64,000 nucleotides of DNA, from positions 192,001 through 256,000 of the forward strand of contig CAXVYR010000004.1 of assembly GCA_963666975.2 (NCBI GenBank), written 5' to 3'. The stretch comes from Terriglobia bacterium. GTDB lineage: Bacteria > Acidobacteriota > Terriglobia > 2-12-FULL-54-10. Positions 16,947 to 49,182 of this stretch are shown piece after piece. The notes beneath the pieces are model-generated. The model was given only the letters and a program-made list of their open reading frames with translations. It was not told where the DNA came from and made no database searches. Both the position numbers and the translations under genes were made by a program. How positions within the stretch are numbered: the first letter of the stretch is position 1; every line of letters starts with the position of its first letter.

Positions 16947-18401
16947 CTAGTCTGGGAACAGCAGCTTCTCTTGATCCCTGGATCTGGACGGGCGTGGAAT
17001 TTGGTCGACGAAATCTCCGTGCAAAGTGGTATCCAGAACGCGCCCGCTCTGGATTACCCTGTGAATCTTCTGAGTGTTCCGGATGTCCTCCAGCGGGTTT
17101 GCATCCAGAATCACGAAATCCGCATACTTGCCCGGCTCCACGCTCCCCACCTCGTGCCATTTCCGGAACTTCTCAGCCGCATACCGTGTCGCCCCCAAAA
17201 GCGCCTTCATTGGAGTGAGTCCCGCATCGACCAGCAACTCCATCTCCCGGTGGAGGTTGATGCCGTACATCTCATAGGGCGTGGCATCGGACCCGGCCAC
17301 AATCTTACCGCCCGCCTCGGAAAACTGTTTCAGGAACAACTGCAGGTTCTTATACCCTTGCTGATACCTGGCGCCTGACTTGATCCGGCCAAAAGAATCG
17401 TAGGCCATGAAAATCCAGCGGCGGTCCAGCTCCGGGACGAAAGCGTAACTCGGGTCTGCCAACAAGGCCCGGTCCTCCTGCTCATACTGCTTGGAGAAGC
17501 GGTGGCCTCCCAGCCAGTAGCAGACCAGTGTCGGGGTGACGGAAGTCCCTTTCTCCACGAACAGTTTGATCAAGTCCCCGTACATCTCGGGTTTCATGTA
17601 ATAGAAGCTTTCCGGGAGGGTGGAGTGATCCACCATATACCCCGTTTCGGTGTACCTTTTTTCTTCGATTTCGTTCAGTTTTTCCCGATCGGTCATGGTG
17701 GCGATTTGAATGCCGCTGGCGTGCTCGATGGAATCCAGACCCATCAGGACGGCCTCCCGGGCGCTGATGGCAATATGGCCCGTTACGGGAATACCATTCA
17801 GGTGGGCTTCTTCAATGACCACCCGCAGCAGGTTCGGCCGCAGCTTTTTGTAAACCTTGATTGCATTCGCCCCCTGCGCCGCCAGAGTGCTGACGGCTTC
17901 TCGGGCGGCCGCCTCCGTGTCGACAACATACCCATAGCCGAAGGTGGACGGCGGGTTATCCACCATAGACCCGGTGGTATACACCCTCGGCCCGGGAAGC
18001 CGTCCCGTTTCGATGGCCTGCTTTTGAGAGAGAATCCACGCGCCGATGTTTCCCGTGTCCACGACGGTTGTGATTCCGTAGTGAAGATAGATGGGGGCGG
18101 AATAGCCGGCATAGTGCGTGTGGCCGTCAATCAAGCCGGGAAGGACGTATTTCCCACGGGCGTCAACCACGCGGGCTCCCGGAGGGACCGGCTGGTTCGC
18201 GTCGCCAGAAATGCGCAGAATTTTGTTATCGCGAACAACGATGACACCGTTTGTCACGGGCGGGGCGCCGGTGCCGTCGATGAGGGTTCCTCCTCGGATC
18301 ACCAGAAACGGGCTTTCTGCTCCCTCCTGGGCCTGCTGAGCGAAGGAGGCTGAGAAGTTTGCAAGAAACAGGACGACGAAGAAGGCGGTTAAGCGCTTCA
18401 T
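16947..18401 (-). CDS. Secreted amidohydrolase, tandem paralog A6
   Basis: Signal peptide ASFA|Q; IDGHTHY, AIKVYK, TGHIA, SIEHAS, AGSD, GSVEPGKYADFVILDANPL. Start placed at MKRLT after an RBS. Confidence 0.92.
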   Translation of the reverse strand: MKRLTAFFVVLFLANFSASFAQQAQEGAESPFLVIRGGTLIDGTGAPPVTNGVIVVRDNKILRISGDANQPVPPGARVVDARGKYVLPGLIDGHTHYAGYSAPIYLHYGITTVVDTGNIGAWILSQKQAIETGRLPGPRVYTTGSMVDNPPSTFGYGYVVDTEAAAREAVSTLAAQGANAIKVYKKLRPNLLRVVIEEAHLNGIPVTGHIAISAREAVLMGLDSIEHASGIQIATMTDREKLNEIEEKRYTETGYMVDHSTLPESFYYMKPEMYGDLIKLFVEKGTSVTPTLVCYWLGGHRFSKQYEQEDRALLADPSYAFVPELDRRWIFMAYDSFGRIKSGARYQQGYKNLQLFLKQFSEAGGKIVAGSDATPYEMYGINLHREMELLVDAGLTPMKALLGATRYAAEKFRKWHEVGSVEPGKYADFVILDANPLEDIRNTQKIHRVIQSGRVLDTTLHGDFVDQIPRPSRSRDQEKLLFPD

Positions 18402-18516
18402 GAGTGTTTTCTCTCCTTCCGTTGAAAAGCAGCTGCCGGACACGAATAAAATTGCGGGATTGGTTCGCGGCGGGCCGCTCTCCGCTTCCCAGGCTCGCTT
18501 TTTTGAAGCGTCCCGC

Positions 18517-19980
18517 CTACCCCCCGAAAAGTAGCTTTTCCATCGAGGGAATGGCCTCTTCGTCCGCTTGTGGCGGTGGATACTTGTCGATGAAGTCCCC
18601 GTGCAACGTGGTGTCTACGACCCGTCCGTTTTGAATCACCATGTGAATCTTCTGCGTGTTCCGGATGTCCTCCAGCGGGTTTGCATCCAGAATCACAAAA
18701 TCCGCGTACTTCCCCGGTTCTACGCTGCCCACTTCGTCCCACTTTTGGAACTTCTCGGCCGCGTACCGGGTGGCCCCCAAGAGCGCCTTCATGGGAGTCA
18801 GGCCCGAGTCCACCAATAATTCCAATTCCCGGTGGAGGTTAATGCCATGCATCTCATAGGGTGTTGCATCTGAACCCGCCACAATCTTTCCTCCTGCCTC
18901 GGAAAACTGTTTCAGAAATAACTGAAGGTTCTTATATGCCTGTTGGTATTTGGGCGTCATTTTGTACTCGCCGAACTTATCATACGCCATGAAAATCCAG
19001 CGGCGATCCAGTTCCGGAATAAAGGCGTAAGCCGGGTCTGCCAACAGGGCCCGGTCCTCCTCCTCATACTGCTTGGAGAAGCGGTGGCCCCCGAGCCAGT
19101 AGCAGACCAGCGTGGGAGTTATCGAAGTTCCCCTCTCCACGAACAACTGGATCAAGTCTGCATACAACTCCGGCTGCATGTAGTAAAAGCTCTCCGGCAG
19201 CGTTGAATGACTCACCATGTAGTGCGTGTCCGTGTACCGGTTCTCTTCGATTTCCTTCAGCTTTTGCGGATCGGTCATGGTCGCGATTGAAATTCCGCTG
19301 GCGTGCTCAATCGAGTCCATGCCCATCTGGACGGCGTCCCGGGCGCTGAGAGCGATGTGGCCGGTTACGATAACCCCCTGGGCGTGGGCTTCCTCAATGA
19401 CCGCCTGAAGTAGTTCGGGCCGCAGTTGTTTGTAGATCTTAATGGCGTCGGCCCCCTTCGCCACGTGGTCTCTCACAGAGGCTCTGGCGGCTTCCTCCGT
19501 TTCGACGGTGAATATGACGCCATACAGAAAGACCGGCGGAGGGTTATCAATCACGGATCCTGCCGTGTAAATCCTGGGTCCCGGAACTTCCCCCTGTTCG
19601 ATGGCTTTTCTCATGGTGTAAATCCAAGGAGATACGTTGCCCGTATCCACAACCGACGTGATTCCGTTGTGCAGGTACAACGGCCCAGCATAGCCGGCGT
19701 AGTGTGTGTGCCCGTCGATCAGGCCCGGAAGCACGAACTTGCCCTCCGCATTAATCACCCGGGCTCCCTCAGGAGCTGGCTGATTCGCGTCCTCGGAGAC
19801 GCTCTGGATCCGGTTGCCGCGGACAACAATGGTCCCGTTCATCCTGGGTTCGGCTCCCGTGCCGTCGATGAGCGTCCCACCTCGGATGACCAGGGATGTG
19901 GCATCCGGCGGACCCTCGGTGGGAGGGGCGGAGCAACTTGCCAACAACAGGATAGGCAGCAAAGCCGTCAGGTACTTCAT
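18517..19980 (-). CDS. Lipoprotein amidohydrolase, tandem paralog A5
   Basis: Lipobox LLASC; same HxH/K/H/H/D metal ligands as A6. Confidence 0.92.
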   Translation of the reverse strand: MKYLTALLPILLLASCSAPPTEGPPDATSLVIRGGTLIDGTGAEPRMNGTIVVRGNRIQSVSEDANQPAPEGARVINAEGKFVLPGLIDGHTHYAGYAGPLYLHNGITSVVDTGNVSPWIYTMRKAIEQGEVPGPRIYTAGSVIDNPPPVFLYGVIFTVETEEAARASVRDHVAKGADAIKIYKQLRPELLQAVIEEAHAQGVIVTGHIALSARDAVQMGMDSIEHASGISIATMTDPQKLKEIEENRYTDTHYMVSHSTLPESFYYMQPELYADLIQLFVERGTSITPTLVCYWLGGHRFSKQYEEEDRALLADPAYAFIPELDRRWIFMAYDKFGEYKMTPKYQQAYKNLQLFLKQFSEAGGKIVAGSDATPYEMHGINLHRELELLVDSGLTPMKALLGATRYAAEKFQKWDEVGSVEPGKYADFVILDANPLEDIRNTQKIHMVIQNGRVVDTTLHGDFIDKYPPPQADEEAIPSMEKLLFGG

Positions 19981-20079: not shown

Positions 20080-20284
20080 GAGCCCGGATTTTTCACCAGC
20101 GCCGGCAGGTGCGGCTGAAATGCCGTAGCGGGCGATTTCTTTCGCCCCTGCCGGCGCTCGCTCCCCATTTGGAAACGCATACCCCCGGCCTCACGCCCGG
20201 GACTACATTCTGTCGTAGGGCACTTGCCGCGCCGCGCGAGTTAGCAAGCGGTTCATTAGACCACTTTTTCAACAAGCTGCCTAG
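20080..20284. repeat. REP-type palindromes between A5 and A4
   Basis: GCGCCGGCAGG/CCTGCCGGCGC inverted repeat; CCCGGCCTCACGCCCGGG hairpin; uninterrupted GCCGCGCGAGTTAGCAAGCGG arm; TTTTTCAACAAGCTGCCTAG end matching 5377. Confidence 0.6.
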
Positions 20285-21753
20285 GGCGAAAGCTCCCTGC
20301 CAAAAAGCAATATTTCCTCTTTGGCGGCTGCCCCCTCTGGAAAGGGCGGATGCGGAATCTCGTCCATGCGCTGTGGATCCAGGCGGGTGTCCAAAATGCG
20401 CCCGCCTTGAATGACCATGTGAATCTTCTGGGTGTTCCGTATGTCCTGGAGCGGGTTCGCATCCAGAATCAGGAAATCTGCATACTTGCCCGGTTCCACG
20501 CTCCCCACTTCGTCCCACGCCTGGAACTTCTCGGCCGCATACCGGGTGGCTGCCAGGAGCGCCTTCATGGGAGTCAGACCCGCGTCCACCAGAAGCTCTA
20601 TCTCCCGGTGGAGGTTGATGCCGTGCATTTCATAGGGTGTGGCGTCGGAGCCGGCCACGATCTTCCCTCCCGCCTCGGAGAATTCTTTCAGGAACAACTG
20701 CAGGTTCTTGTATGCCTGTTGGTATCGCTCAGCCGATTTGACCTGGCCGAAGTGACGATAGGCCTCAAGAATCCACCGGCGGTCGAGTTCCGGAACAAAG
20801 GCGTAAGCGGGATCGGCAAACAGAGCACGATCCTCTTGCTCGTACTGCTTGGAGAAACGGTGGCCTCCGAGCCAGTAGCAGACCAGCGTGGGGGTCACCG
20901 ACGTTCCCCTCTCCACAAACAGCTGGATCAAGTCCCCGTACAGCTCCGGCTTCATGTAATAGAAGCTTTCCGGCACGGTAAGGTGATCGACCAGGTAGTT
21001 GATATCGGTGTACCTCTTTTCTTCGATCTCCCTCAGTTTTTCCCGGTCCGTCATGGTGGCGATGGGAATTCCGGTAGCATGCTCGAACGAGTCGATCCCC
21101 ATCATGACGGCATCCCGGGCGCTGATGGCAATATGGCCCGTTACCGGAAGTCCATTCGCGTGGGCTTCTTCAATCACGGCCCGCATCAGGTCCGGCCTCA
21201 GTTGCTTATAAACCTTGATGGCATCCACGCCTTCCGCCGCCTGGCGTCGGACGGCGGCTCTGGCGGCCTCCTCCGTCTCGACGAGGATGGTGCTGTCGCC
21301 AAAGATTGCCGGAGGATTGTCGATCATAGCCCCGACAGAGTAAATCCGGGGGCCGGCGAGCAAGCCCCGCCGGATGGCGTCTTTCTGCACGAGAATCCAG
21401 GGATTCGTATTTCCCGTATCCACGATGGAGGTAATTCCATAGTGCAGATAGAGCTGCGCCGCATAGCCCGCGTAGTGGGTGTGTCCGTCCACCAGCCCGG
21501 GGAGAACGTACTTACCCCGGGCGTCCACCAGGCGGATGCCTTCCGGAAGCGGTTGGACCCTGTTCGGCAGGACGCTCAGGATTTTGTCGCCGCGGACTAC
21601 AATAGTCCCGTTTTCTCTCGGTGCGGCTCCCGTGCCATCGATGAGCGTACCCCCTTGCAGGACGAGGGTCGGCGATCCTGCGTTCTGAGCAAACAAGACC
21701 GAGGCACTGGTTACAAATAGAACTGCTACCCGCAAGACATTGTAAAGTTTCAT
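20281..21753 (-). CDS. Secreted amidohydrolase, tandem paralog A4
   Basis: Start MKLYN after GAAGGAG; signal peptide VLFA|Q; conserved metal ligands. Confidence 0.92.
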   Translation of the reverse strand: MKLYNVLRVAVLFVTSASVLFAQNAGSPTLVLQGGTLIDGTGAAPRENGTIVVRGDKILSVLPNRVQPLPEGIRLVDARGKYVLPGLVDGHTHYAGYAAQLYLHYGITSIVDTGNTNPWILVQKDAIRRGLLAGPRIYSVGAMIDNPPAIFGDSTILVETEEAARAAVRRQAAEGVDAIKVYKQLRPDLMRAVIEEAHANGLPVTGHIAISARDAVMMGIDSFEHATGIPIATMTDREKLREIEEKRYTDINYLVDHLTVPESFYYMKPELYGDLIQLFVERGTSVTPTLVCYWLGGHRFSKQYEQEDRALFADPAYAFVPELDRRWILEAYRHFGQVKSAERYQQAYKNLQLFLKEFSEAGGKIVAGSDATPYEMHGINLHREIELLVDAGLTPMKALLAATRYAAEKFQAWDEVGSVEPGKYADFLILDANPLQDIRNTQKIHMVIQGGRILDTRLDPQRMDEIPHPPFPEGAAAKEEILLFGRELSP

Positions 21754-21797
21754 GAACAGTTTCTCCTTCGAGGGGGAGGGGTCATCCGGCGGAAATG

Positions 21798-23279
21798 TCA
21801 ACGACCCGGGTAATCCTCATCTTCAAAGAGCAGCTTCCCAAGGTTCGTCACTTCATCCCCGGGCCGAGGTGGCACCGGAATCTGGTCGACGAAGTTTGGG
21901 TCCAATGTGGTATCCAAAATCCGCCCGTTCTGGATCACCATGTGAATCTTCCGGGTGTTCCGTATGTCCTCCAGTGGATTAGCATCCAGGATCACGAAAT
22001 CCGCATACTTTCCCGGCTCTACGCTTCCCACCTCGTCCCATTTCCAATACTTCTCGGCCGCATGTTTCGTTGCCCCTAGAAGTGTCTGCATGGGAGTCAG
22101 CCCCGCATCCACCCAAAGCTCCATCTCCCGGTGGAGATTGACGGCGTGCATCTCGTAGGATGTAGAATCTGTCCCAACCACGACCTTCCCACCCGCATCA
22201 GCAAATTGTTTCAGGAACATCTGCAGGTTGCTGTACGCTTGCTGATAGCGGGGGGTTGTCTTGGTCCGGCCAAAAAAGTCATGGGCCAGAGGAATCCAGC
22301 GACGCGGCAACTCAGGGATCGCAGCATAAGCCGGATCCGCCAACACGGCCTCATCCTCCCTCTTATACTCCTCTGCGAAGCGGTGGGTTCCAATCCAGTA
22401 GCCGGCCAGATTGGGAGTCACTGAGGTTCCCTTCTCCATAAACAGTTTCACCAAGTCCGGGACCATCTCGGGTTTCATAAAGGAGAAAATGCCCCGCACC
22501 GTGGCGTGGTCCGCCAGGTAGCCCCGGACGGTGTATCTTTTTTGCTCCACCTCATTCAGTTTTTCCCGGTCCGTCATCGTGGCGATGGCAATGCCGCTGG
22601 CGTGCTCGATGGAGTCTATTCCCATCATGACGGCATCCCGAGCGCTGCTCGCCAGATGGGCCGTTACGGGAATCCCGTGGAAGTGCGCTTCCTCCACGAC
22701 CGCCCGCATCAGGTTGGGCCGCAATTGTTTGTAGACCTTGATCGCATCGGCGCCTGCTGCCACCTCGCGGCGGACTGCCTCTCTTGCCTCCTCCTCCGTC
22801 TCCACGAGGTGCCATCCACTGATGTACAAGGATGGCGGGGGGTTATCTATCATGTTCCCCGCTGCGTAAATCCTCGGGCCGGGGATCAGCCCTTTTTCGA
22901 TCGCCCATTTCTGAGCGAAAATCCAGGGGCTGGCGTTTCCTACGTCAATGACGGTGGTAATTCCGTAATGAAGGTAGAGTTGAGCGGCCCAGCTGGCGTA
23001 GTGCGCGTGGCCGTCGATCAGGCCGGGAATGATGTATTTGCCCCGCGCATCCACCACGCGGGCGCCCTCCGGCAATGGCTGGTTCGCGTCGCGAAGGACG
23101 CTCAGAATCTTGTTGCCGCGAGCCACAATCCGCCCGTTCTCCCTGGCATCGGCTCCGGTGCCGTCGATGAGCGTACCCCCTTGCAGGACGAGGGTCGGCG
23201 ATCCTGCGTTCTGAGCAAACGAGACCGAGGCACTGGTTAGAAATAGAACTGCTAACCGCAAAGCATTGCAAAGTTTCAT
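21798..23279 (-). CDS. Secreted amidohydrolase, tandem paralog A3 (mosaic)
   Basis: Start MKLCN; IDGHAHY, TAHLA, VGTD; catalytic body nearly identical to A2. Confidence 0.92.
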   Translation of the reverse strand: MKLCNALRLAVLFLTSASVSFAQNAGSPTLVLQGGTLIDGTGADARENGRIVARGNKILSVLRDANQPLPEGARVVDARGKYIIPGLIDGHAHYASWAAQLYLHYGITTVIDVGNASPWIFAQKWAIEKGLIPGPRIYAAGNMIDNPPPSLYISGWHLVETEEEAREAVRREVAAGADAIKVYKQLRPNLMRAVVEEAHFHGIPVTAHLASSARDAVMMGIDSIEHASGIAIATMTDREKLNEVEQKRYTVRGYLADHATVRGIFSFMKPEMVPDLVKLFMEKGTSVTPNLAGYWIGTHRFAEEYKREDEAVLADPAYAAIPELPRRWIPLAHDFFGRTKTTPRYQQAYSNLQMFLKQFADAGGKVVVGTDSTSYEMHAVNLHREMELWVDAGLTPMQTLLGATKHAAEKYWKWDEVGSVEPGKYADFVILDANPLEDIRNTRKIHMVIQNGRILDTTLDPNFVDQIPVPPRPGDEVTNLGKLLFEDEDYPGR

Positions 23280-23335
23280 GAACAGTTTCTCCTTCGAGGA
23301 GGAGAGGTCATCCGGCGGAAATGTCAACGACCCGG

Positions 23336-24817
23336 CTAGTCTTCATCTTCAAAGAGCAACTTCCCTAGATTAGTAATTATTTCCTCGGACCAGGACGGTT
23401 GCGGAATCTGATCGACGAAGTTTGGATCCAACGTGGTATCCAAAATGCGCCCGTTTTGGATCACCATGTGAATCTTCCGGGTGTTCCGTATGTCCTCAAG
23501 TGGATTAGCGTCCAGGATCACAAAATCCGCATACTTTCCCGGCTCTACGCTTCCCACTTCGTTCCATTTCCGGTACTTCTCGGCCGCGTGTTTCGTTGCT
23601 CCCAGAAGTGTCTGCATGGGAGTCACGCCCGCATCCACCCAAAGCTCCATCTCCCGGTGGAGATTGACGGCGTGCATCTCGTAGGATGTAGAATCTGTCC
23701 CAACGACGGCCTTCCCACCCGCATCAGCAAATTGTTTCAGGAACATTTGCATGTTTCTGTACGCTTGCTGATAGCGGGGAGTTGTCTTGGTACGGCCAAA
23801 AAAGTCATGGGCCAGAGGAATCCAGCGACGCGCCAACTCAGGGACCGCAGCATAAGCTGGATCTGCCAACAAAGCTTCATCCTCCCTCTTATACTCATCG
23901 GCGAAGCGGTGGGTTCCAATCCAGTAGCCGGCCAGATTGGGAGTCACTGAGGTTCCCTTCTCCACAAAGAGTCTCACCAAATCCGGGACCAGCTCGGGTT
24001 CCATGTAGTAGAAAATTCCGCGGACAGTGGAATGTTCCGCCAGATAGCCCCGATCGGTATATCTTTTTTGCTCCACCTCATTCAGTTTTTCCCGATCAGT
24101 TGTCGTGGCGATGGCAACTCCGCTGGCGTGCTCGAGCGAGTCCACTCCCATCATGACGGCATCCCGAGCGCTGCTCGCCAGATGGGCTGTAACGGGAATT
24201 CCATGGAAGTGCGCTTCCTCAACGACAACCCGCATCAGGTTGGGCCGCAATTGTTTGTATACCTTGATCGCATCGGCGCCTGCTGCCACCTCGTGGCGGA
24301 CTGCGGCCCTGGCCTGCTCCGGCGTCTCCACGAGGTGCCAATCACTGATGTACAAGGATGGCGGGGGGTTATCTATTATGTTCCCCGCTGCGTAAATCCT
24401 TGGGCCGGGGATCAGCCCGTTTTCGATTGCCCATTGCTGAGCGAAAATCCAGGGGCTGGCGTTTCCTACGTCAACGACAGTGGTAATTCCGTAGTGAAGG
24501 TAGAGTTGGGCGGCCCAGCCAGAGTAGTGCGCGTGCCCGTCGATCAGGCCGGGAAGGACATATTTACCCCGAGCATCCACCACGCGTGCACCCTGCGGCG
24601 CCGGGCGAGCGGTTCCCCGAGAGACGCGGAGGATCTTGTTGCCGCGGACGACAATGGTCGCATCTACTACGGGGTCGGCCCCGGTACCGTCAATGAGCGT
24701 TCCCCCTTGAATGAAAAGGGTAGGCTCTCCCGCTGCCTCCTGGGCGAAAGAAGGCACGCCATTTGCGAAGAACAGGATAAAGAACAAAGCGGTGAAATGT
24801 CTCGTAATGATTATCAC
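23336..24817 (-). CDS. Secreted amidohydrolase, tandem paralog A2
   Basis: GTG start after AAGGAGG; signal peptide PSFA|Q; conserved ligands. Confidence 0.92.
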   Translation of the reverse strand: MIIITRHFTALFFILFFANGVPSFAQEAAGEPTLFIQGGTLIDGTGADPVVDATIVVRGNKILRVSRGTARPAPQGARVVDARGKYVLPGLIDGHAHYSGWAAQLYLHYGITTVVDVGNASPWIFAQQWAIENGLIPGPRIYAAGNIIDNPPPSLYISDWHLVETPEQARAAVRHEVAAGADAIKVYKQLRPNLMRVVVEEAHFHGIPVTAHLASSARDAVMMGVDSLEHASGVAIATTTDREKLNEVEQKRYTDRGYLAEHSTVRGIFYYMEPELVPDLVRLFVEKGTSVTPNLAGYWIGTHRFADEYKREDEALLADPAYAAVPELARRWIPLAHDFFGRTKTTPRYQQAYRNMQMFLKQFADAGGKAVVGTDSTSYEMHAVNLHREMELWVDAGVTPMQTLLGATKHAAEKYRKWNEVGSVEPGKYADFVILDANPLEDIRNTRKIHMVIQNGRILDTTLDPNFVDQIPQPSWSEEIITNLGKLLFEDED

Positions 24818-24923: not shown

Positions 24924-26390
24924 CTACTTTCCATACATCCACTTTTCTCGTTCGGTAATTGCCTCCTGAGTCATGGATGGTTTGGGAATCTGGTTGACAA
25001 AGTTTCCATCCAGGCGGGTATCCAGAATCCCCCCGTTTTGAATCACCATGTGAATCTTCGTAGTGTTCCGAATGTCCTCCAGCGGGTTCGCATCCAGAAT
25101 CACGAAATCCGCGTACTTCCCCGCTTCCACGCTTCCCACTTCGTTCCACTTCCGGTACTTCTCGGCTGCATACCTGGTGGCCCCCAAAAGCGCCTGCATG
25201 GGTGTGAGACCCGCATCGACCAGCAACTCCATCTCCCGGTGGAGGTTGATGCCGTACATCTCGTATGGCGTAGAGTCCGAGCCTGCCACAATCTTGCCGC
25301 CTGCCTCCGAGAACTGCTTCAGGAACGCCTGCAGGTTCTTATACCCTTGCTGATACTTGGGACCTGACTTGATCTGGCCAAAATAATCGTAGGCCAGGAA
25401 AATCCAGCGACGATCCAATTGGGGGACAAAAGCATAAGCCGGGTTTGCCAACAAGGCCCGATCCTCTTTCTCATACCGGTCCGAAAAGCGGTGGCCTCCC
25501 AGCCAGTAACACACCAGAGTTGGTGTCACCGACGTCCCCTTCTCCACAAAGAGCTGAATCAAGTCCCCATACAACTCAGGTTTCATATAGTAGAAACTTT
25601 CCGGCAGGGTGGCATGATCCACCATGTAGAACGTGTCGGCGTACCTCTTTTCTTCGATCTCCTTCAGTTTTTCCTGATCTGTCATGGTAGCGATTTGAAT
25701 GCCACTGGCGTGCTCCAGCGAGTCAATTCCCATCATGACGGCATCCCGAGCACTGATCGATAGATGGCCGGTTACGGGAATCCCATGGAGGTGGGCCTCC
25801 TCGATGACCGCCCGCAGCAGATCCGGACGCAATTTCTTATAAACTTTGATCGCATCCAAACCATCTGCCACGTTGCGTCTCACGGCAGCCCGGGCGGCCT
25901 CGGGTGTCTCGACCATAAACCCATAACCAAAGGTCGAGGGCGGACTATCAATGTGAGATCCTGCGCTGTAAATCCTCGGTCCGGGAACCAGCCCTTTGTC
26001 AATAGCCCATCTCTGTGTGACAATCCATGCGGTTGAGCTTCCCGTGTCAACAACAGTTGTGATTCCGTAGTGAAGGTATATTGGCCCGGCATAGCCGGCA
26101 TAATGGGTGTGTCCGTCAATCAGGCCGGGAATGATGTATTTGCCCCGCGCATCCACCACGCGGGCGCCTTCCGGCAATGGCTGGTTCGCGTCGCGAAGGA
26201 CGCTCAAAATCTTGTTGCCGCGAGCCACAATCCGCCCGTTCTCCCTGGCATCGGCCCCGGTGCCGTCGATGAGTGTTCCCCCTTCAATGACCAGAGCGGG
26301 GCTTCCCGCTCTCTCCCCGGCCTGCTGTGCGAAGGAGACAGCACCGGTCAGAAGAAACAGCACGAGGAACAAGGAGAGAGATTGCTTCAT
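24924..26390 (-). CDS. Secreted amidohydrolase, tandem paralog A1
   Basis: Signal peptide VSFA|Q; conserved ligands; first gene downstream of the TonB receptor. Confidence 0.92.
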   Translation of the reverse strand: MKQSLSLFLVLFLLTGAVSFAQQAGERAGSPALVIEGGTLIDGTGADARENGRIVARGNKILSVLRDANQPLPEGARVVDARGKYIIPGLIDGHTHYAGYAGPIYLHYGITTVVDTGSSTAWIVTQRWAIDKGLVPGPRIYSAGSHIDSPPSTFGYGFMVETPEAARAAVRRNVADGLDAIKVYKKLRPDLLRAVIEEAHLHGIPVTGHLSISARDAVMMGIDSLEHASGIQIATMTDQEKLKEIEEKRYADTFYMVDHATLPESFYYMKPELYGDLIQLFVEKGTSVTPTLVCYWLGGHRFSDRYEKEDRALLANPAYAFVPQLDRRWIFLAYDYFGQIKSGPKYQQGYKNLQAFLKQFSEAGGKIVAGSDSTPYEMYGINLHREMELLVDAGLTPMQALLGATRYAAEKYRKWNEVGSVEAGKYADFVILDANPLEDIRNTTKIHMVIQNGGILDTRLDGNFVNQIPKPSMTQEAITEREKWMYGK

Positions 26391-26500: not shown

Positions 26501-29500
26501 TCAGAACACGACTTTGAGCGCAAACTGGATTTGGCGCGAGGTGGTTGATGTCGAGGCAATTACCCCTGCATTAGGCAGGCGGGTATTGGTGGCATCACCG
26601 AGAACACTGGTTTGGGGCACGTCAAAATTCGGGCGATTGAACATGTTGAAGACCTGCGATTCGAACTCCAGGCGGACTCGTTCCGTAAGCGGCGTTGCTT
26701 TTTTTATCGCAAAGTCGAAGGTGAACAAGCCCGGCCCTACCACGGTATTTCTGCCGGAATTTCCGTAGAACCCCGGCTCCTGCTGCTCGAAGGCGCAGGG
26801 ATCAAACCAACGGGTAGGGTCTTGCAGCTTCTGGCCAGCCGGTATTCCCTGGCAACCGGCAGTAACCCCGCTGGTTGGGTTATTGCTGAAGCCCGGCCTC
26901 AAGTTTGGACGATGCCCCGTATTTACGCCAGGCGCTGTCCCAGAGCGAGCCGTATCGAATTCCATCGTCACGTTGATAGGAAAACCCGAGTAGGCGTTAA
27001 TGATGGATGAGATCTGCCATCCATCCAACAGCTTTCCCGCCGCTCCTGTCAAATCGCGGCCAAAAGGCAGGTCATAGGCCACGTTGGTGTTGAAGATGTT
27101 CCTCCGGCTGAAAGTGCCGACGCTCCGGCTTGAAGCGAAATCGTGGCGATTATGCACGTTCTTTCGCGAGCTCCGGCTGGTAACCGTGTACTCCTCTGAG
27201 CTGTCATCAACATTTTTGGAAAAGGTGTAGTTGATCTGCGTTGCCAGTCCCTGGCTGAACCGTCGCTCTAAGCTCAGGATGAGCCCATGGTAGGTGGAGT
27301 GAGCGCCAGTCTGTTTGATGGAACTCTCGCCGATATTGGGGCTGAGCCGCGGGTACAGAGGATTACCCATTGCATCTGCCGGGTTAAACCACCGCCCATC
27401 CGCCAGCCTGTCGGCCGGGCGCGACCCCGCGTCCACCGGGATGACCAGATGGACACCGTTGGAACCCGCGTATCCGATGGAGAACGACATGCTGTTGCTG
27501 AGCTGTTGCTGTATGTTCAGATTGAAGTGCATCATATACGGCATATGGTTGTAAAGGTCGGATTCTATCTGGTAGGGCCCCGATATGCCAGGCACAGTCT
27601 CGTTGGGAAAATCTGCCTTGGGGAAACCCGGAACTCCAAGGCCTGCGAGGAACAACACGAACTTGCGTCCGGCCTTAGGAGGCAGGCCGGTTGTGTAATG
27701 AGCGGGGCCCAACTGGTCAAAAAAGAGACCAAAACCGCCGCGAACGGAGGTCTTGCCGGAGTTGGTGGGATCCCAGGAGATCCCGACCCGGGGAGCGAAG
27801 CAGTAGGTGCAAAAGTCTTCGTAGTACGGGCCTTTCCCGTTGTTCGGTGCAATGGTGGGTTCCATTTCTGTGAGGTCGTACCAATGGGCAAGTTTGCCAT
27901 TGGTTTCCATTGGAGCCCTCATGTTTTCGTAACGTACCCCCAGCGAGAGGGAAAGATTGGGCAGGACTCGGATGTCATCCTGAATGAAGGCCCCATACAT
28001 CGTGTGGCGCAGGCTCCTGTCCGTATCGGAAACCAGCGACTCCCCGAAAAACCCCAAAGGATTCGCCGTTAACACGTTTTCTATATTCGAAAAGAAATAC
28101 AGCCATGACGGGAACACCTTGATACTGTTGTTGTTGCGGAGACGCGAGAGCTTAAAGCCCGTTTTGATCGTATGGCGACCTTTGGTCCAATCAATAGTGT
28201 TGGCGTATTCAAAGTTGTTTAAAACCGAGTCTATGGGATTGAGGACGCCATTCTCCAACGGGGAGCCACGAACGCCCGCTGCTAACGCCGGAATATTTAG
28301 CCCGCCACCCACACCAAACGGAAACTTATCATTGAAATCCAGCGAGGGATCGAGCGGCTTCAATTGAATGGAATTCATATTGCGCGCGTTCCGGGCAAAG
28401 CCGAAGCGAGCCGTATTCAGCAACGTGGGAGAAAAGATATGGGTATGTTGAATTGTCAAAAAATGAAGTCGGATGCCCTCGTCCGCTCCAAATGTGGGCA
28501 GCAGGTAGGGCGGCAGCAACTCGGAGTCTGAAAACGTATAGCGCCCAAAGATGGTATCATTATCTGAAATATTGTAATCCAACCTTGCCGAAATAAAGTC
28601 TTCGGTCCCCGGCTGGCTTGAGCCACCTAACCATTCGCCGACGTTGGGTCCTAGCGTTCTGGGACTGTTGGGGAGAGGCAAAATGTCCAGGTAGGGCCGC
28701 ATTTTGGGATCGACCCCGACGAAGCGTTCGCCCGCTGCCGCACCCGGGCCGCATCCACCAGGACAGGCCTCATCCTCCAAGAAACCTTGCTGGGCCCGTG
28801 CAGTCAGCACCGGGGACGCGTGGCTGATGCCCAGGCGTTCCCGGAATCCTTCGTAGTTGACGTGGAAGAACAACTTGTCCTGTCGGATGGGACCGCCCAC
28901 GGCGACTCCAAACTGATTTCGTCTGAAGGGTGGGATCGGTTGCGTAGCGTCATCGAAAAAGTTCTTGGCGTCGAGTTTGTCGTTGCGGAAGTACTCGTAA
29001 ATCGATCCGTGGAGCGTGTTCGTCCCCCCCAGCGTGACTACGTTGATGACCCCGCCGGCATTTTTGCCGTATTCGGAGCTGTAGTTGTTGACTAAAACCT
29101 TGAATTCCCTGATCGTATCTACGCCCAACAGGAAGCCCTTCGCGCCGCCGGGACCGCTGTTGTATGAATTGTCAATGGCCGTTCCATCCAGCAAAAAGGT
29201 GTTCATTGACCCCCGTGCGCCCCCGACAGAAAGCTTTGTGGCTCGCCCGATCAAGAATTCTCCTCCGGACTGGGTGTTGGGGACTACCCCGGGTGTCAAC
29301 GTGGCAAGCTGCGCGAAGCTGCGGCCGTTTAACGGCAGGTCTCGCACCGCCTGGCTGGTCACCAAACCGCCCATCGTGGACATCCCGGTGGTTTCCACCA
29401 GCGGCGCCTCGCCCGTGACCGTAACGCTCTCGGTGACGTCGCCCACCTCCAGAACCAGATCGATGGTCGCTGCCTGACCTACGGTCAGCGTGATTCCCGT

Positions 29501-29821
29501 CCGGATCTGGACCTTAAATCCCGGCGAGGTGGCCTGCACCCGGTAGTTGCCCAGAGGAAGCTGTGGAGCAACATAGGTGCCACTTGCATTGCTCTCTACC
29601 GTACGGGTTGCGCCGGTATCGACATTCCTGACTTCCACAGTCGCCCCGGGAATTACCGCACCCGTCGTATCCTCTACGGTGCCCAGGATGGTGGCGGTAA
29701 TCGTCTGGGCCCGGCCTACGGAACCGAGCAGAAACACTATGCAGAGCGCCGTCAAAACCATCTTGCTAATCGCTTGTCGAACCGGGAAAGAAACCAACGT
29801 CGGGCAAAAGCTGAGCCGCAT
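26501..29821 (-). CDS. TonB-dependent receptor (Oar/Acidobacteria type with N-terminal carboxypeptidase-regulatory-like domain)
   Basis: GTVEDTTGAVIPGATV, DLPLNGRSFAQLATLTPGV, IREFKVLVNNYSSEYG, RRNQFGVAVGGPI, FAPRVGISWDP, C-terminal RQIQFALKVVF; strong RBS. Confidence 0.95.
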   Translation of the reverse strand: MRLSFCPTLVSFPVRQAISKMVLTALCIVFLLGSVGRAQTITATILGTVEDTTGAVIPGATVEVRNVDTGATRTVESNASGTYVAPQLPLGNYRVQATSPGFKVQIRTGITLTVGQAATIDLVLEVGDVTESVTVTGEAPLVETTGMSTMGGLVTSQAVRDLPLNGRSFAQLATLTPGVVPNTQSGGEFLIGRATKLSVGGARGSMNTFLLDGTAIDNSYNSGPGGAKGFLLGVDTIREFKVLVNNYSSEYGKNAGGVINVVTLGGTNTLHGSIYEYFRNDKLDAKNFFDDATQPIPPFRRNQFGVAVGGPIRQDKLFFHVNYEGFRERLGISHASPVLTARAQQGFLEDEACPGGCGPGAAAGERFVGVDPKMRPYLDILPLPNSPRTLGPNVGEWLGGSSQPGTEDFISARLDYNISDNDTIFGRYTFSDSELLPPYLLPTFGADEGIRLHFLTIQHTHIFSPTLLNTARFGFARNARNMNSIQLKPLDPSLDFNDKFPFGVGGGLNIPALAAGVRGSPLENGVLNPIDSVLNNFEYANTIDWTKGRHTIKTGFKLSRLRNNNSIKVFPSWLYFFSNIENVLTANPLGFFGESLVSDTDRSLRHTMYGAFIQDDIRVLPNLSLSLGVRYENMRAPMETNGKLAHWYDLTEMEPTIAPNNGKGPYYEDFCTYCFAPRVGISWDPTNSGKTSVRGGFGLFFDQLGPAHYTTGLPPKAGRKFVLFLAGLGVPGFPKADFPNETVPGISGPYQIESDLYNHMPYMMHFNLNIQQQLSNSMSFSIGYAGSNGVHLVIPVDAGSRPADRLADGRWFNPADAMGNPLYPRLSPNIGESSIKQTGAHSTYHGLILSLERRFSQGLATQINYTFSKNVDDSSEEYTVTSRSSRKNVHNRHDFASSRSVGTFSRRNIFNTNVAYDLPFGRDLTGAAGKLLDGWQISSIINAYSGFPINVTMEFDTARSGTAPGVNTGHRPNLRPGFSNNPTSGVTAGCQGIPAGQKLQDPTRWFDPCAFEQQEPGFYGNSGRNTVVGPGLFTFDFAIKKATPLTERVRLEFESQVFNMFNRPNFDVPQTSVLGDATNTRLPNAGVIASTSTTSRQIQFALKVVF

Positions 29822-30361: not shown

Positions 30362-30390
30362 AATTTACGCGGGTCCCTCTGGCTTGTCAA
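30362..30390 (-). promoter_or_regulatory. Putative sigma70 promoter oriented toward the TonB receptor
   Basis: Minus strand TTGACA, 17 bp, TAAATT, about 540 bp upstream of the receptor ATG. Confidence 0.45.
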
Positions 30391-33897: not shown

Positions 33898-33902
33898 GGG
33901 GT

Positions 33903-38988: not shown

Positions 38989-39182
38989 TATACCGTTTTT
39001 GCAATTGGTGTAGACTGCTCCGCCATCGGGACCAGACCTCTTCATTTTGCTGTCATCCCGAGCGGAGCGAGGGATCTGCTTTTGTACGTGTGGATGAATC
39101 CGTTCCCGGCGGAAAAGCAGATTCCTCGCTCCGCTCGGAATGACATCGCGTTGTGGTTTACACCAATTGTGAAAACGCTCTA
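38989..39182. repeat. TA-flanked MITE-like element containing a long REP hairpin
   Basis: Outer inverted repeat CGTTTTTGCAATTGGTGTAGAC / GTTTACACCAATTGTGAAAACG; inner 33-bp inverted repeat TGTCATCCCGAGCGGAGCGAGGGATCTGCTTTT (39051-39083) / AAAAGCAGATTCCTCGCTCCGCTCGGAATGACA (39113-39145). Confidence 0.85.
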
Positions 39183-39941: not shown

Positions 39942-39983
39942 CGTGGATCTTTCTGCTGCAAGCCGCTCATAGTTCCAGGTTTC

Positions 39984-40754: not shown

Positions 40755-40766
40755 AGGGTTTGCGTC

Positions 40767-41564: not shown

Positions 41565-41615
41565 TCTGGTTCCTCGATTGGAAGCAGTAGAACACTTTGG
41601 GACCGGATTCGCTCT

Positions 41616-42650: not shown

Positions 42651-42756
42651 ACCCTTCCCAAAAGGACTCCTTTCCAGATTCACCATGGAGGGGTGGTTCG
42701 AGCTATCGATCCATTCGACCGATAAGAATCGGAAGACGGAGTTCCACGCTCCCCCA

Positions 42757-44639: not shown

Positions 44640-46094
44640 ATGAAACTTTCCTCCGTTCTTCTCTTCGTGTTGTCAGTCGTTGCTTGCTCGGTTGCGCTTG
44701 CCCAGATGGCCGAAGAGACCGGCCGGTCCCCCTTCCTGATCATTCAGGGGGGAACGCTCATCGATGGTACCGGAGCCTCTCCCACAAGCAACGGAAGAAT
44801 TGTTGTTCGTGGCAATAAGATCCTGAGTGTTGTTGGTGACACCGACGAGCCACTTCCGGATGGAGCCCGCCTGGTTGACGCGCGAGGAAAATATATTCTT
44901 CCCGGCCTGATCGACGGACATGCGCATTATGCAGGTTATGCCGAGCCTCTCTACCGTTCTAACGGGATTACATCGGTTGTTGACGTAGGAAACCCAACCC
45001 CGTGGATTCTGTCTCAGAAATGGGCCATCGAAAGAGGCTTGCTTCCCGGACCGAGGATCTATGCGACGGGATCTCAGATCGACAATCCCCCGCTGACATT
45101 CGGCTATGGGATCGCCGTCGAGACGGTGGAGGCGGCCAGAAGCGCCGTCCGACGCCAGGTGGAAGCCGGGGTAGACGCAATTAAAGTTTATAAGAAAATC
45201 CGCCCGGAATTATTGCGGGCGGTCATTGAAGAAGCGCACTTCTATGGGATTCCCGTAACCGGGCATATCGCCATGAGCGCTCGGGAGGCCCTCTTGATGG
45301 GGATCGACTCCATCGAGCACGCCGTTGGAATTCACATCCCCACGATGAGGAATCGGGAAAAATTGAAGGAGTTCCAGGAAAAAAGGTATACGGACGTGAA
45401 CTACCTGGCGGCTCATGACACCGTTACGGGAAGTTTCTACTACATGGAACCGGATCTGGTCCCGGACCTGGTAAAGCTCTTCGTGGAAAAGGGAACGTCG
45501 GTAACACCGACATTGGCGTCCTATTGGATCGGAGGCCACGGCTTTGCGGAGCGCTATGCCAGGGAGGATCAAGACCTGTTGTCGAGTCCTGCGTATGCCT
45601 TTGTCCCCGAATTCGATCGTAGGTGGATCATGCAGGCCCACAGTTACTTTGCCCGCATGAAGGCGGGACCCAAATATCGACAAGCCTACAAAAACCTGCA
45701 GTCGTTTCTGAAACAACTGGCCCAGGCGGGAGGAAAGATCGTAGCTGGGACGGATTCTACGGTCTACGAAATGCACGGCATTAACATCCACCGGGAAATG
45801 GAACTTCTGGTGGATGCCGGGTTGACTCCCATGCAGGCGCTTCTGGGAGCCACACGATATGCGGCGGAGAAGGTCCGGAAGTGGAACGAAGTGGGAAGCG
45901 TGGAGTCGGGCAAGTACGCGGACCTTCTGATCCTGGATGCGAACCCGATGGAGGACATCCGGAACACTCGGAAGATTCACATGGTGATCCAGAATGGGGT
46001 TATCTTGGATACGGAGTTGAACCCAAACTTTGTGAATCAGCTTCCCCGCCCGGCACGCGACCCCGAGAAACTGGAGAAGCTGATTTTTCCTTGA
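44640..46094 (+). CDS. Secreted amidohydrolase, paralog B1
   Basis: Signal peptide VALA|Q; IDGHAHY, AIKVYK, TGHIA, IEHAV, AGTD; same subfamily as A1-A6. Confidence 0.92.
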   Translation: MKLSSVLLFVLSVVACSVALAQMAEETGRSPFLIIQGGTLIDGTGASPTSNGRIVVRGNKILSVVGDTDEPLPDGARLVDARGKYILPGLIDGHAHYAGYAEPLYRSNGITSVVDVGNPTPWILSQKWAIERGLLPGPRIYATGSQIDNPPLTFGYGIAVETVEAARSAVRRQVEAGVDAIKVYKKIRPELLRAVIEEAHFYGIPVTGHIAMSAREALLMGIDSIEHAVGIHIPTMRNREKLKEFQEKRYTDVNYLAAHDTVTGSFYYMEPDLVPDLVKLFVEKGTSVTPTLASYWIGGHGFAERYAREDQDLLSSPAYAFVPEFDRRWIMQAHSYFARMKAGPKYRQAYKNLQSFLKQLAQAGGKIVAGTDSTVYEMHGINIHREMELLVDAGLTPMQALLGATRYAAEKVRKWNEVGSVESGKYADLLILDANPMEDIRNTRKIHMVIQNGVILDTELNPNFVNQLPRPARDPEKLEKLIFP

Positions 46095-46166
46095 GGAGGC
46101 TCTGGCCCCAGTGGGAATTTCACCCTGGAAGCACGTTTCCACTCTAGCCGCAGGAAGGACAATCAC

Positions 46167-47630
46167 ATGAAGCAACTCACCGTTCTTTTGGCAATCCTGT
46201 TCCTGGTTCATTGCTCCGCGCGCCCCCCGGAGGGCGAGGAGGTGCGAGGGGGAATCCCGACCCTGGTCATTCGAGGGGGAACGCTCATTGATGGCACCGG
46301 GGCCGGGCCCAGGGAGAACGGGATTATCGTTGTTAGCGACAAGAGAATCCTGAGCGTTTCTCAAAATCCAAACCAGCCCGCACCGGAAGGAGCTCGCCTG
46401 GTTGACGCACAAGGCAAGTACATTCTTCCCGGCCTGATCGACGGACACACGCACTACGACGGAAATGCCGCGCTCCTTTATCTTTCCAATGGGATCACAT
46501 CGGTCATTGACACGGGAAACACCGCCCCCTGGATCTACGCCCAGAAATGGGCGATCGAAAAAGGGCTAGTTCCTGGACCGAGGATCTTTGCGGCGGGGCC
46601 TCATGTCAATTCTCCGCCTGAAATCTTTGCCTCGATGATCATCGAGACCGTGGATGCCGCCAGGACCGCAACGCGGCAAATGATTGAGGACGGGTCGGAT
46701 CTGATCAAGGTTTATAAGCAGCTGCGGCCGGAGCTGCTCCAGGCAGTCATTGAGGAAGCGCACCTCCATGGGATTCCCGTAACAGGCCATCTGGCCATGA
46801 GCGCTCGGGAGGCCGTCTTGATGGGCATTGACTCGCTCGAACACGCCAGCGGAGTTCCCATCGCCACAATGACCGACGAGGAAAAGTTAAAAGAGGTCGA
46901 GGAAAAAAGATACACCGACGCGAACTACCTGGTGGATCATGCCACCCTGCCGGAAAGCTTCTACTATATGCAGCCCGAGCTGGTTTCAGAATTGGTTGAT
47001 CTTTTCATCGAGAAGGGAACGTCGGTGACCCCCACATTGATTTGTTACTGGATGGGAGCAACCGGCTTTGAGGAAGAATATGAAAAGGCTGATCGGGCGT
47101 TCTTTGCGGACTCGGCCTACGGCTTTGTTCCTGAGTTGGAGCGTCGCTGGATTCTCCGGGCCTACGATCATTTCAGCCGCATCAAAGCGGGTCCCAAATA
47201 CGAGCAGGGGTATAAGAATCTGCAGTCGTTTCTCAAACAATTCGCTCAAGCGGGCGGCAAGATCGTGGCTGGGTCCGATGCTTCCGGCTACGGGATGCAC
47301 GGTGTCAGTCTCCACCGCGAGCTGGAGCTTTTGGTTGCCGCCGGCCTCACTCCCATGCAAGCGCTTCTGGGAACCACCCGATATGCGGCGGAGAAGGTCC
47401 GGAAATGGGACGAGGCGGGAAGCGTGGAACCCGGCAAGTACGCGGACCTTCTGATTCTGGAGGCGAACCCGCTGGAGGACATCCGGAACACCCGGAAGAT
47501 TCACATGGTGATACAGAACGGGGTCGTATTGGACACGACCTTGGACCCGAACTTTATCAACCAGATCCCGCGCCCAGCCCCGACAGAGCAGTATATGACG
47601 ATGTATGAGAAGTTACTCTTTGGGAACTAA
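46167..47630 (+). CDS. Probable lipoprotein amidohydrolase, paralog B2
   Basis: FLVHC-SARPPEG N-terminus resembling that of A5; conserved ligands. Confidence 0.92.
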   Translation: MKQLTVLLAILFLVHCSARPPEGEEVRGGIPTLVIRGGTLIDGTGAGPRENGIIVVSDKRILSVSQNPNQPAPEGARLVDAQGKYILPGLIDGHTHYDGNAALLYLSNGITSVIDTGNTAPWIYAQKWAIEKGLVPGPRIFAAGPHVNSPPEIFASMIIETVDAARTATRQMIEDGSDLIKVYKQLRPELLQAVIEEAHLHGIPVTGHLAMSAREAVLMGIDSLEHASGVPIATMTDEEKLKEVEEKRYTDANYLVDHATLPESFYYMQPELVSELVDLFIEKGTSVTPTLICYWMGATGFEEEYEKADRAFFADSAYGFVPELERRWILRAYDHFSRIKAGPKYEQGYKNLQSFLKQFAQAGGKIVAGSDASGYGMHGVSLHRELELLVAAGLTPMQALLGTTRYAAEKVRKWDEAGSVEPGKYADLLILEANPLEDIRNTRKIHMVIQNGVVLDTTLDPNFINQIPRPAPTEQYMTMYEKLLFGN

Positions 47631-47703
47631 TCGGTCCAGGCGAGATGCACAAACTTTCAGGGTGACAGAGGATCTGTTGCCAACTTCAGGAGAGAAAAGC
47701 GTC

Positions 47704-49182
47704 ATGAAACACCACACTTTCATTTTTTTCCTCGTCTTCTTCTGCGTAAGTAGCTCTGGCTCTTTCGCTCAGCAGGCCGAGAAGAAAGCGGGAACTGCCT
47801 CCTTGATCATTCAAGGCGGGACTCTCATCGACGGCACCGGGGCCGGGCCAAGGGAAAACGGGACCATCGTAGTTCAAGACAACAAGATTCTCACCGTCTC
47901 TCGCGACCCCATCCAACCATTGCCGGAAGGAGCCCGTGTGATTGATGCGCGGGGCAAATACGTCCTTCCCGGCTTGATTGACGGACATACGCACTATGGC
48001 GGCTATGCCGCGCAACTTTACCTGCACTACGGAATCACATCGGTTGTTGACACAGGCAACACCAGACCGTGGATTCTGGTTCAGAAATGGGCCATTGAAA
48101 GAGGCCTAATTCCCGGACCGAGGATTTACGCTGCGGGGGCCATGATGGATCACCCTCCACTGGTCTTTTTCGATGGGAATACATTCCTGGTCGAGACGGC
48201 GGAGGCCGCTAAAGCTGCCGTGCGACGCCAGGTGTCGGAAGGGGTAGACGCCATCAAGGTTTACAAGCACATGCGGCCGGAGCTGGTGCAGGCGGTCATC
48301 GAGGAAGCGCATTTTCAGGGGGTTCCCGTGACCGGCCATATTTCGTTCAGTGCTCGCGATGCCGTCATGATGGGAATTGACTCGCTCGAGCACGCCAGCG
48401 GAATTCCCATGGCAACGATGACCGATCTGGAAAAACTGAAGGAGATCGAAGAAAGACGGTATACGGATGCAAACTACCTGGTGGATCATGCCTCTCTCCC
48501 CGAAATTTTCTACTATATGCAGGACGAACTGGTGGAGGATTTGGTTGAGCTCCTGGTGGAGAAAGGAACTTCTGTGACGCCCACTTTGGTGTGTTACTGG
48601 ATGGGAGTCCACCGCTTCTCCGAGCGATACGAACAGGAGGATCGAGCCTTCTTATCCAACCCGGCTTATGCTTTTGTCCCAGAATTGGACCGTCGCTGGA
48701 TCTTCCAGGCATATGATCATTTCGGCCGGATCAAGGCAGGCCCTAAATATCAGCAAGCCTACAAGAACCTGCAGGCGTTTCTTAGGAAATTCGCTCAGGC
48801 AGGAGGCAAGATCGTGGCAGGCTCGGATTCCAATCCCGGCTACGAAATGCACGGCGTCAGCCTCCACCGGGAGCTGGAACTCTTGGTGGACGCAGGTCTG
48901 ACTCCGATGCAGGCACTTTTGGGGGCGTCCAAGTATGCGGCTGAGAAATTCCGGAAATGGAACGAAGTAGGCAGCGTCGAGGCGGGCAAGTATGCGGATT
49001 TCGTGATCCTGGATGCCAATCCGTTGGAAGACATCCGGAACACCACAAAGATCCACATGGTGATTCAAAACGGCCGGGTTCTGGATACGGACCTGCACGG
49101 AAACTTCACGGATCAGATCCCTCACCCTCTTCTCAAGGAGGAGGAGATCGGCAGACAGGAGAAACTCCTCTTTGGCGATTAG
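47704..49182 (+). CDS. Secreted amidohydrolase, paralog B3
   Basis: Start MKHHT after AGGAG; signal peptide GSFA|Q; conserved ligands. Confidence 0.92.
   Translation: MKHHTFIFFLVFFCVSSSGSFAQQAEKKAGTASLIIQGGTLIDGTGAGPRENGTIVVQDNKILTVSRDPIQPLPEGARVIDARGKYVLPGLIDGHTHYGGYAAQLYLHYGITSVVDTGNTRPWILVQKWAIERGLIPGPRIYAAGAMMDHPPLVFFDGNTFLVETAEAAKAAVRRQVSEGVDAIKVYKHMRPELVQAVIEEAHFQGVPVTGHISFSARDAVMMGIDSLEHASGIPMATMTDLEKLKEIEERRYTDANYLVDHASLPEIFYYMQDELVEDLVELLVEKGTSVTPTLVCYWMGVHRFSERYEQEDRAFLSNPAYAFVPELDRRWIFQAYDHFGRIKAGPKYQQAYKNLQAFLRKFAQAGGKIVAGSDSNPGYEMHGVSLHRELELLVDAGLTPMQALLGASKYAAEKFRKWNEVGSVEAGKYADFVILDANPLEDIRNTTKIHMVIQNGRVLDTDLHGNFTDQIPHPLLKEEEIGRQEKLLFGD

Follow-up and report, generated by a model that had tools for sequence, protein, structure and literature searches.

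Two tandem arrays of intact amidohydrolase paralogs with diverged active-site loops and a mosaic member at an acidobacterial locus

A 64,000-nucleotide (nt) stretch of DNA from a Terriglobia bacterium (contig CAXVYR010000004.1, positions 192,001 to 256,000; hereafter the window) carries nine full-length, intact paralogs of an amidohydrolase gene, arranged in two tandem arrays of six genes on the minus strand and three on the plus strand (Table 1). The A array runs from A1 to A6 in order of transcription (26390 to 16947) and the B array from B1 to B3 (44640 to 49182), and the identity between the nine paralogs is 61–84%. For A6, A4, A3 and B3, the Met-Lys (MK) codons at 18401, 21753, 23279 and 47704 are probably the true starts, in preference to the longer starts given by the open reading frame (ORF) finder; a purine-rich stretch resembling a ribosome-binding site (RBS) precedes each of them. 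A candidate tenth copy at 6266–7675 was rejected on the basis of its low identity (31–34%) and altered HxH motif.

Table 1. Coordinates of the paralogs, their parts and other features of the window discussed in the text
Feature	Position	Strand	Remarks
A6	16947..18401	-	Amidohydrolase paralog; cleavable signal-peptide-like N-terminus; counterpart P0003, 94%
A5	18517..19980	-	Paralog with lipobox (Cys16); counterpart P0007, 99%
A4	20281..21753	-	Paralog; counterpart P0005, 94%
A3	21798..23279	-	Three-way mosaic paralog (segment identities, trees)
A2	23336..24817	-	Paralog; GTG start after GGAGG motif
A1	24924..26390	-	Paralog chosen for structure model; ligands H94, H96, K182, H209, H227, D372
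B1	44640..46094	+	Paralog
B2	46167..47630	+	Paralog; Cys16 after hydrophobic stretch, without canonical lipobox; counterpart P0012, 94%
B3	47704..49182	+	Paralog; counterpart P0004, 94%
A1 loop 3	25905..25961	-	Residues 144–162, after beta-3; hypervariable, indel-bearing; equivalent in each paralog
A3 segment 1 (leader)	23171..23279	-	94% nt identity to A4, 50–61% to other seven
A3 segment 2 (N-terminal beta-sandwich)	23029..23163	-	98% nt identity to A1, 67–78% to other seven
A3 segment 3 (catalytic barrel and C-terminus)	21798..23016	-	91% nt identity to A2, 68–74% to other seven (last 60 nt excluded)
A3–A4 spacer	21754..21797	-	Near-identical to A2–A3 spacer (alignment)
A2–A3 spacer	23280..23335	-	
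TonB-dependent receptor	26501..29821	-	110 bp upstream of A1, same orientation
Sigma-70-like site	30362..30390	-	Upstream of receptor; 10 of 12, consensus match only
Amidohydro_3 gene	10591-12540	-	Exported-looking
Amidohydro_3 gene	12894-14822	-	Exported-looking
Amidohydro_3 gene	54775-56715	+	Exported-looking
Other amidohydrolase-fold gene	6266-7675		
Other amidohydrolase-fold gene	8631-9878		
Other amidohydrolase-fold gene	32646-33812		
Other amidohydrolase-fold gene	60158-61156		

Together with 16 database proteins, the nine form a single clade with 100% support (P0027 was dropped as a fragment), and six of them have a full-length database counterpart at 94–99% identity. The clade is narrow: in a library of 50% clusters, P0008 scores 891 bits and the next representative 734. 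Of the 120 matches listed for each query, those that name an organism are all Acidobacteria (5/5 for A1 and 18/18 for the TonB-dependent receptor), in keeping with a probable acidobacterial host. The A and B arrays are not separate radiations, given that B1 groups with A2/A3 (85% support; deep nodes are unresolved). A scan of a genome collection listed 80 loci of distant relatives (best segment 23–48%), among which 10 have at least two profile matches of at least 60 bits (some of these being split ORFs) and one has at least three homologues nearby, so that arrays of the size seen here look uncommon among the loci listed. That one locus (L040, 553–13570), from a ‘Candidatus Marinacidobacterales’ chromosome, packs five distant amidohydrolase homologues, four full and one partial, into 13.5 kb. 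Two of these share 69% identity, and the locus is a local expansion separate from the arrays described here. We note in addition that P0121 (974 aa) is a fusion of two amidohydrolase domains, and that the P0010 and P0071 clusters match A1 in longest-contig size; further paralogs may sit elsewhere in the genome.

All nine proteins are assigned to the Pfam family Amidohydro_1. Their best NCBIfam family is in every case Xaa-Pro dipeptidase (NF051886), at 133–149 bits and thus below the cut-off of 500, and imidazolonepropionase HutI (TIGR01224) also matches all nine at 47–64 bits, below its curated 298-bit cut-off; a search of the Atlas returned generic amidohydrolase clusters only. The structural analysis rests on an AlphaFold model of A1 only, with an alignment of 33 sequences (the nine window proteins plus 24 of the 120 listed matches). 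The model, with a predicted local distance difference test (pLDDT) score of 91.7 and a predicted template modelling (pTM) score of 0.90, has a (beta/alpha)8 barrel and a beta-sandwich domain. Its best structural matches (Z 31–37, 25–30% identity) are Cc2672, prolidases, ochratoxin amidohydrolases and molinate/phenylurea hydrolases, and bottromycin amidohydrolase falls in a similar Z range at 19% identity. The HxH, Lys, His, His, Asp set, which is given as the ligand set of binuclear amidohydrolases in PMC4407906, is kept in all nine. These features point to nine binuclear-metal amide hydrolases lying outside the named families tested.

The His two residues after the beta-5 ligand is replaced by Ala or Ser in 9/9; the equivalent His289 of ochratoxinase touches the substrate carboxylate in docking (PMC11342369). 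The GGH His of loop 3 at the 3MTW-aligned position, a putative equivalent of ochratoxinase His191, is present in two of the nine. The paralogs are not canonical dipeptidases or carboxypeptidases, and the substrate is probably something other than a free-carboxylate N-acyl amino acid or dipeptide bound in the canonical way. Our best guess, based on the nearest relatives and the neighbouring catabolic genes, is small aromatic or heterocyclic amides or ureas.

By eye and by lipobox pattern, each of the nine has a basic and then hydrophobic, signal-peptide-like N-terminus, and all are probably exported. A5 is probably a lipoprotein; B1 matches the lipobox pattern too, but has an Ala-x-Ala site further on. 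The TonB-dependent receptor would be a probable importer for the A array. Our promoter search over the window found five sigma-70-like sites versus 7.0 expected by chance, with terminator counts likewise at chance level; none of five intergenic folds tested was significant (z −1.5 to 0.9), and neither an Rfam match nor a tRNA was found in the window.

An earlier note on this DNA had proposed that the paralogs share a conserved scaffold and differ in loops next to the metal ligands, having diversified in substrate range rather than simply raised dosage. The motifs that it quoted are real, as 36/36 strings were found in the nine translated ORFs in the order given, and the C-terminal block that it called nearly invariant has a pairwise difference of 0.10, versus 0.29 for the mature protein; this block is a family trait, with a similar one in phenylurea hydrolase B. 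In the A1 model, the four quoted segments fall within barrel loops 1, 3, 7 and 8, all of them on the predicted active-site face. Of these, only loops 1 and 8 lie next to metal ligands; loop 3 follows beta-3, a strand without one. Loop 3 alone is clearly hypervariable, the other three segments being near background. Pooled over eight paralogs, the four segments differ at 0.51 versus 0.29–0.34 under the null (p 0.004–0.008, with the choice of segments made after the fact). These barrel statistics exclude A3, whose barrel was copied recently from that of A2. An unbiased window of six residues after each of the eight strands gives 0.36, versus 0.32 for the helices and 0.32 for the back-face loops. 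Loop 2 (0.49) and loop 5 (0.46) are also variable, and had been overlooked.

The strongest support for a functional reading comes from a comparison with the seven-member sister clade. The divergence of the loops on the active-site face (face loops) relative to the rest is 1.47 among the paralogs, with the face loops higher in 28/28 pairs, versus 0.84 in the sister clade, where they are higher in 8/21; at the tip of loop 3 the corresponding ratios are 2.61 and 0.78. Two close sister-clade pairs show 2 face-loop changes versus 17.4 expected, and face loops are therefore normally constrained in the family. The face loops thus changed regime in the expanded paralog clade. Some of the pocket-side changes are non-conservative, such as Gly/Ser/Cys after beta-7 and an Asp in loop 1 of B2.

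Every copy is intact and evolves overall under purifying selection, with pairwise ratios of nonsynonymous to synonymous divergence (dN/dS) of 0.09–0.24 in 36/36 pairs, and the paralogs are old, with synonymous divergence (dS) mostly about 1 or more. The maximum-likelihood (ML) estimate of the same ratio (omega) rises from 0.12 in the scaffold to 0.22 in the face loops and 0.25 in loop 3, and is 0.15 in the face loops once loop 3 is set aside. Sites that change fastest are concentrated in loop 3, loop 2, the helix that follows, and the loop-6 and loop-7 insertions, with 12 of the top 30 in loops 2 and 3.

A3 proved to be a mosaic that the earlier note had overlooked, in which the leader of A4, the beta-sandwich of A1 and the barrel of A2 are joined at conserved motifs. 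The two short tracts span 108 nt (to A4) and 134 nt (to A1), with one breakpoint inside the GGTLIDGTG motif (23171–23163) and the other inside the PGLIDGH motif (23029–23016), and third-position permutation gave 0 of 20000 for each short tract. The dS of A3 to A2 is 0.24. The near-identical spacers on either side of A3 look like the footprint of a block duplication. Similar chimeras occur in the database: in P0009 an A1 N-terminus precedes an A2/A3 barrel, in P0006 and P0008 a B2 N-terminus precedes a B3 barrel, and P0010 carries the C-terminal half of A5 after an N-terminal half of another kind. Trees built from the sandwich and from the barrel disagree on A3, P0009, P0006 and P0008, and the donors of the latter three are neighbours in the gene order of the window, as unequal crossing-over would predict. 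P0009, the A4 counterpart P0005 and P0265, a 94% counterpart of the receptor, have an equal longest-contig size (152798), and P0009 retains an A3-type read-through tail; it fits a contracted array and is, from these sequence features, a plausible intermediate to A3. Assembly errors across similar tandem genes could in principle create such joints, and it is true that the breakpoints lie in conserved motifs and that P0006 is a single sequence on a 2344-bp contig. We regard this as very improbable for A3 and the database chimeras, given that the A3 segments match their donors at 94%, 98% and 91% rather than 100% (and that dS to A2 reaches the value given above), that a protein identical to A1 is recorded on a contig of 4.5 Mb, and that the P0008 and P0009 clusters have 8 and 12 members on contigs of 1.36 Mb and 153 kb.

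The breakpoints lie at or before HxH in four of the five chimeras noted, and recombination therefore mainly re-pairs leaders and sandwiches with whole barrels. Loop shuffling is ruled out on this ground as the main source of pocket diversity, and recombination does not explain the loop differences between the paralogs.

Several observations weigh against reading the loop differences as a set of distinct specificities. Without loop 3, the quoted segments (loops 1, 7a and 8) differ at 0.38 versus 0.29 (p=0.21), none of the 30 fastest sites falls in these loops, and the divergence signal comes mostly from loops 2 and 3; the face-loop set moreover excludes the long loop-6 and loop-7 insertions (omega 0.21). 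The site-wise dN/dS test that the earlier note had envisaged yielded no positive selection (M1a/M2a p=1, M7/M8 p=0.21, M8a/M8 p=1), in our own implementation of the site models, which has low power with eight sequences and dS near saturation. A2 and A3 differ at 4/60 face-loop columns (13–32 in other pairs), which limits the nine paralogs to eight pocket types at most. Close cross-genome counterparts retain their loop sequence at p=0.046 and 0.021 over eight non-independent pairs, and at p=0.10 and 0.11, which is not significant, with six independent pairs. Loop change has stayed rapid in the B2 lineage (ratio 1.69, with an excess at p<0.01 for P0017 and P0019), which fits continued diversification or, equally well if these proteins are orthologs, relaxed constraint. 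The Arg187Ala change in molinate hydrolase, which brings a gain of thiobencarb activity (PMC4407906, section 9), speaks in favour of a role for loop 3, as it falls in the beta-3 loop by a count on the alignment (the numbering reproduces His282 and Thr283), but the register is uncertain in this weakly aligned stretch (independent E-value, i-E, 0.028). Finally, what is known of the database chimeras P0006, P0008, P0009 and P0010 is their protein sequence.

Much of this could be accommodated if the copies shared one job, retained for dosage, with loop 3 free to drift after the family expanded. Omega is nowhere above 1 and about 6% of sites fall in a class with omega near 1, loop 3 bears indels, A2 and A3 have near-duplicate pockets, and the retention of loops between counterparts misses significance; yet the copies have stayed intact in spite of their age, six of the nine persist elsewhere as full-length counterparts at 94–99% identity, these loops hardly change in the sister clade, and the pocket-side changes include the non-conservative ones noted above. 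We therefore consider dosage with drift unlikely. The proposal of a diversified substrate range in place of added dosage accordingly survives in part: the face loops, on the active-site side of the barrel, do evolve faster in every pair of paralogs compared and in a minority of sister-clade pairs, but they do so without positive selection, chiefly through loops 2 and 3, with A2 and A3 near-redundant and loop retention at p of about 0.10.

A different role for the variable parts is also conceivable, in which loops and tails would set oligomer partners and leaders would set soluble versus lipid-anchored location. Pairwise difference is among the highest in the leader (0.66) and the tail (0.58), A5 carries a lipobox, recombination mostly exchanges leaders and sandwiches, and solved relatives form tetramers or octamers in which loops and C-termini make contacts (PMC4407906 and PMC11342369). 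Such a scheme leaves the changes right after beta-7 and beta-8 in A2/A3, B1 and B2 unexplained, however, and loop 3 gates the substrate in a solved relative. We give it little credence as the explanation, while noting that it is compatible with, and not exclusive of, the reading that we prefer.

That reading, which we hold to be somewhat probable, is that exported binuclear-metal amide hydrolases form a lineage-restricted array here that evolves by birth and death, with specificities that have diverged and probably overlap. The proteins would work in the periplasm on amides imported by the upstream TonB-dependent receptor, and would cleave them by the standard metal-hydroxide mechanism with the Asp as general base, which is established chemistry in the amidohydrolase superfamily. 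An old burst of duplication would have come first, and we propose that the copies then persisted because their pockets had come to favour different substrates, probably with some overlap. In outline this looks like an ordinary expansion of a gene family, one that would probably broaden the set of molecules open to degradation by the cell. Unequal crossing-over would still be altering copy number and re-pairing leaders with barrels; A3 itself may have arisen from a deletion-fusion of A1 and A2, similar to P0009, followed by a crossover of this fusion with an intact array that supplied the A4 leader. A bolder idea, rather unlikely in our judgment, is that the arrays form a recombining, strain-variable enzyme library, in which the conserved motifs act as crossover points that generate new leader–barrel pairings (soluble or lipid-anchored) as well as half-barrel hybrids of the P0010 type with new pockets. 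If this were true, strains would carry their own sets of periplasmic hydrolases behind one TonB-dependent receptor, acting on diverse amides such as natural products, and the locus, from an uncharacterised subfamily of amidohydrolases, would be the metabolic equivalent of an antigenic-variation array.

Seven further amidohydrolase-fold genes bring the total in the window to 16; the Amidohydro_3 genes at 10591-12540 and 54775-56715 are 61% identical. Between the arrays (31807-44169) lies a catabolic cluster encoding a PF06684 protein, an enamidase homologue (32646-33812; E 8e-144 to 2VUN), an aldehyde dehydrogenase, the large subunit of a Mo-hydroxylase, CoxG, an ATP-binding cassette (ABC) importer and a UbiD decarboxylase, with no FAD or 2Fe-2S subunit among the ORFs scanned. 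The cluster is reminiscent of pyridine or nicotinate-type catabolism, and the context suggests scavenging of nitrogenous aromatic or heterocyclic amides, in which the nine paralogs might take part. Another amide hydrolase at the locus may be the long, exported-looking asparaginase-like protein encoded at 49271-51091 (-), convergent with B3.

Other features of the window were recorded in passing. Within a luciferase-like monooxygenase gene (30689-31702, -), a near-tandem duplication around 30790-30885 causes a frameshift, and a plausible C-terminus continues in another frame; this is either a broken gene or an assembly slip. An intergenic repeat of about 120 nt occurs in two copies, at 10445-10563 and 16702-16820 (core of 74 nt at 97%), the second just downstream of A6; it has no significant fold and is possibly a small mobile element or one resembling repetitive extragenic palindromic (REP) sequences, and a further repeat pair lies at 10356-10391 and 16661-16696. 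Also downstream of A6, the gene at 14971-16599 (-) encodes a protein that looks exported and combines a carboxypeptidase-regulatory-like domain with a CxxCH motif and a Vgb-lyase-like beta-propeller; it scores far below the streptogramin lyase cut-offs. We further observed an IS1595-family transposase gene (7913-8575, +), a low-complexity Arg/Gly/Pro-rich protein with a signal peptide and no Pfam or NCBIfam match (4271-5380, +), and a 95-nt imperfect palindrome (77%) at 39051-39145, where the ABC importer genes end.

Amplification–divergence and birth-and-death are models for bacterial tandem gene families, and the process of gene-family expansion followed by birth and death is itself already known; the set shows no new mechanism, and what is new here is the A3 mosaic, together with comparable fusions of adjacent paralogs among its database relatives. 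A literature search, made without supplements and most subscription papers, found no description of the array, the subfamily or the mosaics. The locus nevertheless preserves a trace of unequal crossing-over among tandem bacterial enzyme genes, for which the database protein P0009 is a plausible intermediate, and its nine genes offer a natural series for how loops set specificity, combining one scaffold and identical ligands with at most eight pockets and natural chimeras. The nearest solved relatives degrade ochratoxin, thiocarbamate and phenylurea, and the set would therefore be a sensible screen for amide-cleaving biocatalysts.

In shufflons, antigenic-variation cassettes and diversity-generating retroelements, variable modules between conserved motifs are exchanged by recombination. 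The paralogs resemble such programmed systems in having variable modules flanked by conserved motifs and in their recombinational exchange, and differ in that the exchanges mostly move whole barrels. Among the 48 window ORFs scanned there is no site-specific recombinase or reverse transcriptase, only the IS1595 transposase, and the locus has no silent or partial donor cassettes, 9/9 copies being full ORFs with an RBS-like stretch and a leader. Set against the group of Cc2672, Xaa-Pro dipeptidase and ochratoxinase (3MTW, 2QS8, 3BE7, 8IHQ, 4C5Y, 9KOV), the paralogs have the same fold (Z 32–37, 25–30% structural identity) and the full HxH-K-H-H-D set in common, whereas their loop 4 is about 14 residues shorter and their loops 6 and 7 contain long helical stretches. 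Molinate hydrolase and phenylurea hydrolase B (PuhB; 4UB9, 4WHB) are the top sequence matches, at 25–28% structural identity. Loops act as gatekeepers here, with a loop-3 change altering specificity in molinate hydrolase, and according to PMC4407906 the latter enzyme is mononuclear, with an Asn for an M-alpha His and an uncarboxylated Lys; PuhB likewise has Asn at the M-alpha His position, whereas the paralogs keep HxH in all nine. At the level of gene families, the duplication and divergence of promiscuous enzymes has been described (PMC8763031), and a close parallel is the acidobacterial Solibacter usitatus, in which the expansions consist of old paralogs that evolve under purifying selection and that the authors interpret as functional diversity (PMC3174227). 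In that paper the word amidohydrolase occurs 0 times; compared with the Solibacter expansions, the copies in our window are tandem, probably exported, encoded beside a TonB-dependent receptor, and accompanied by recent mosaics.

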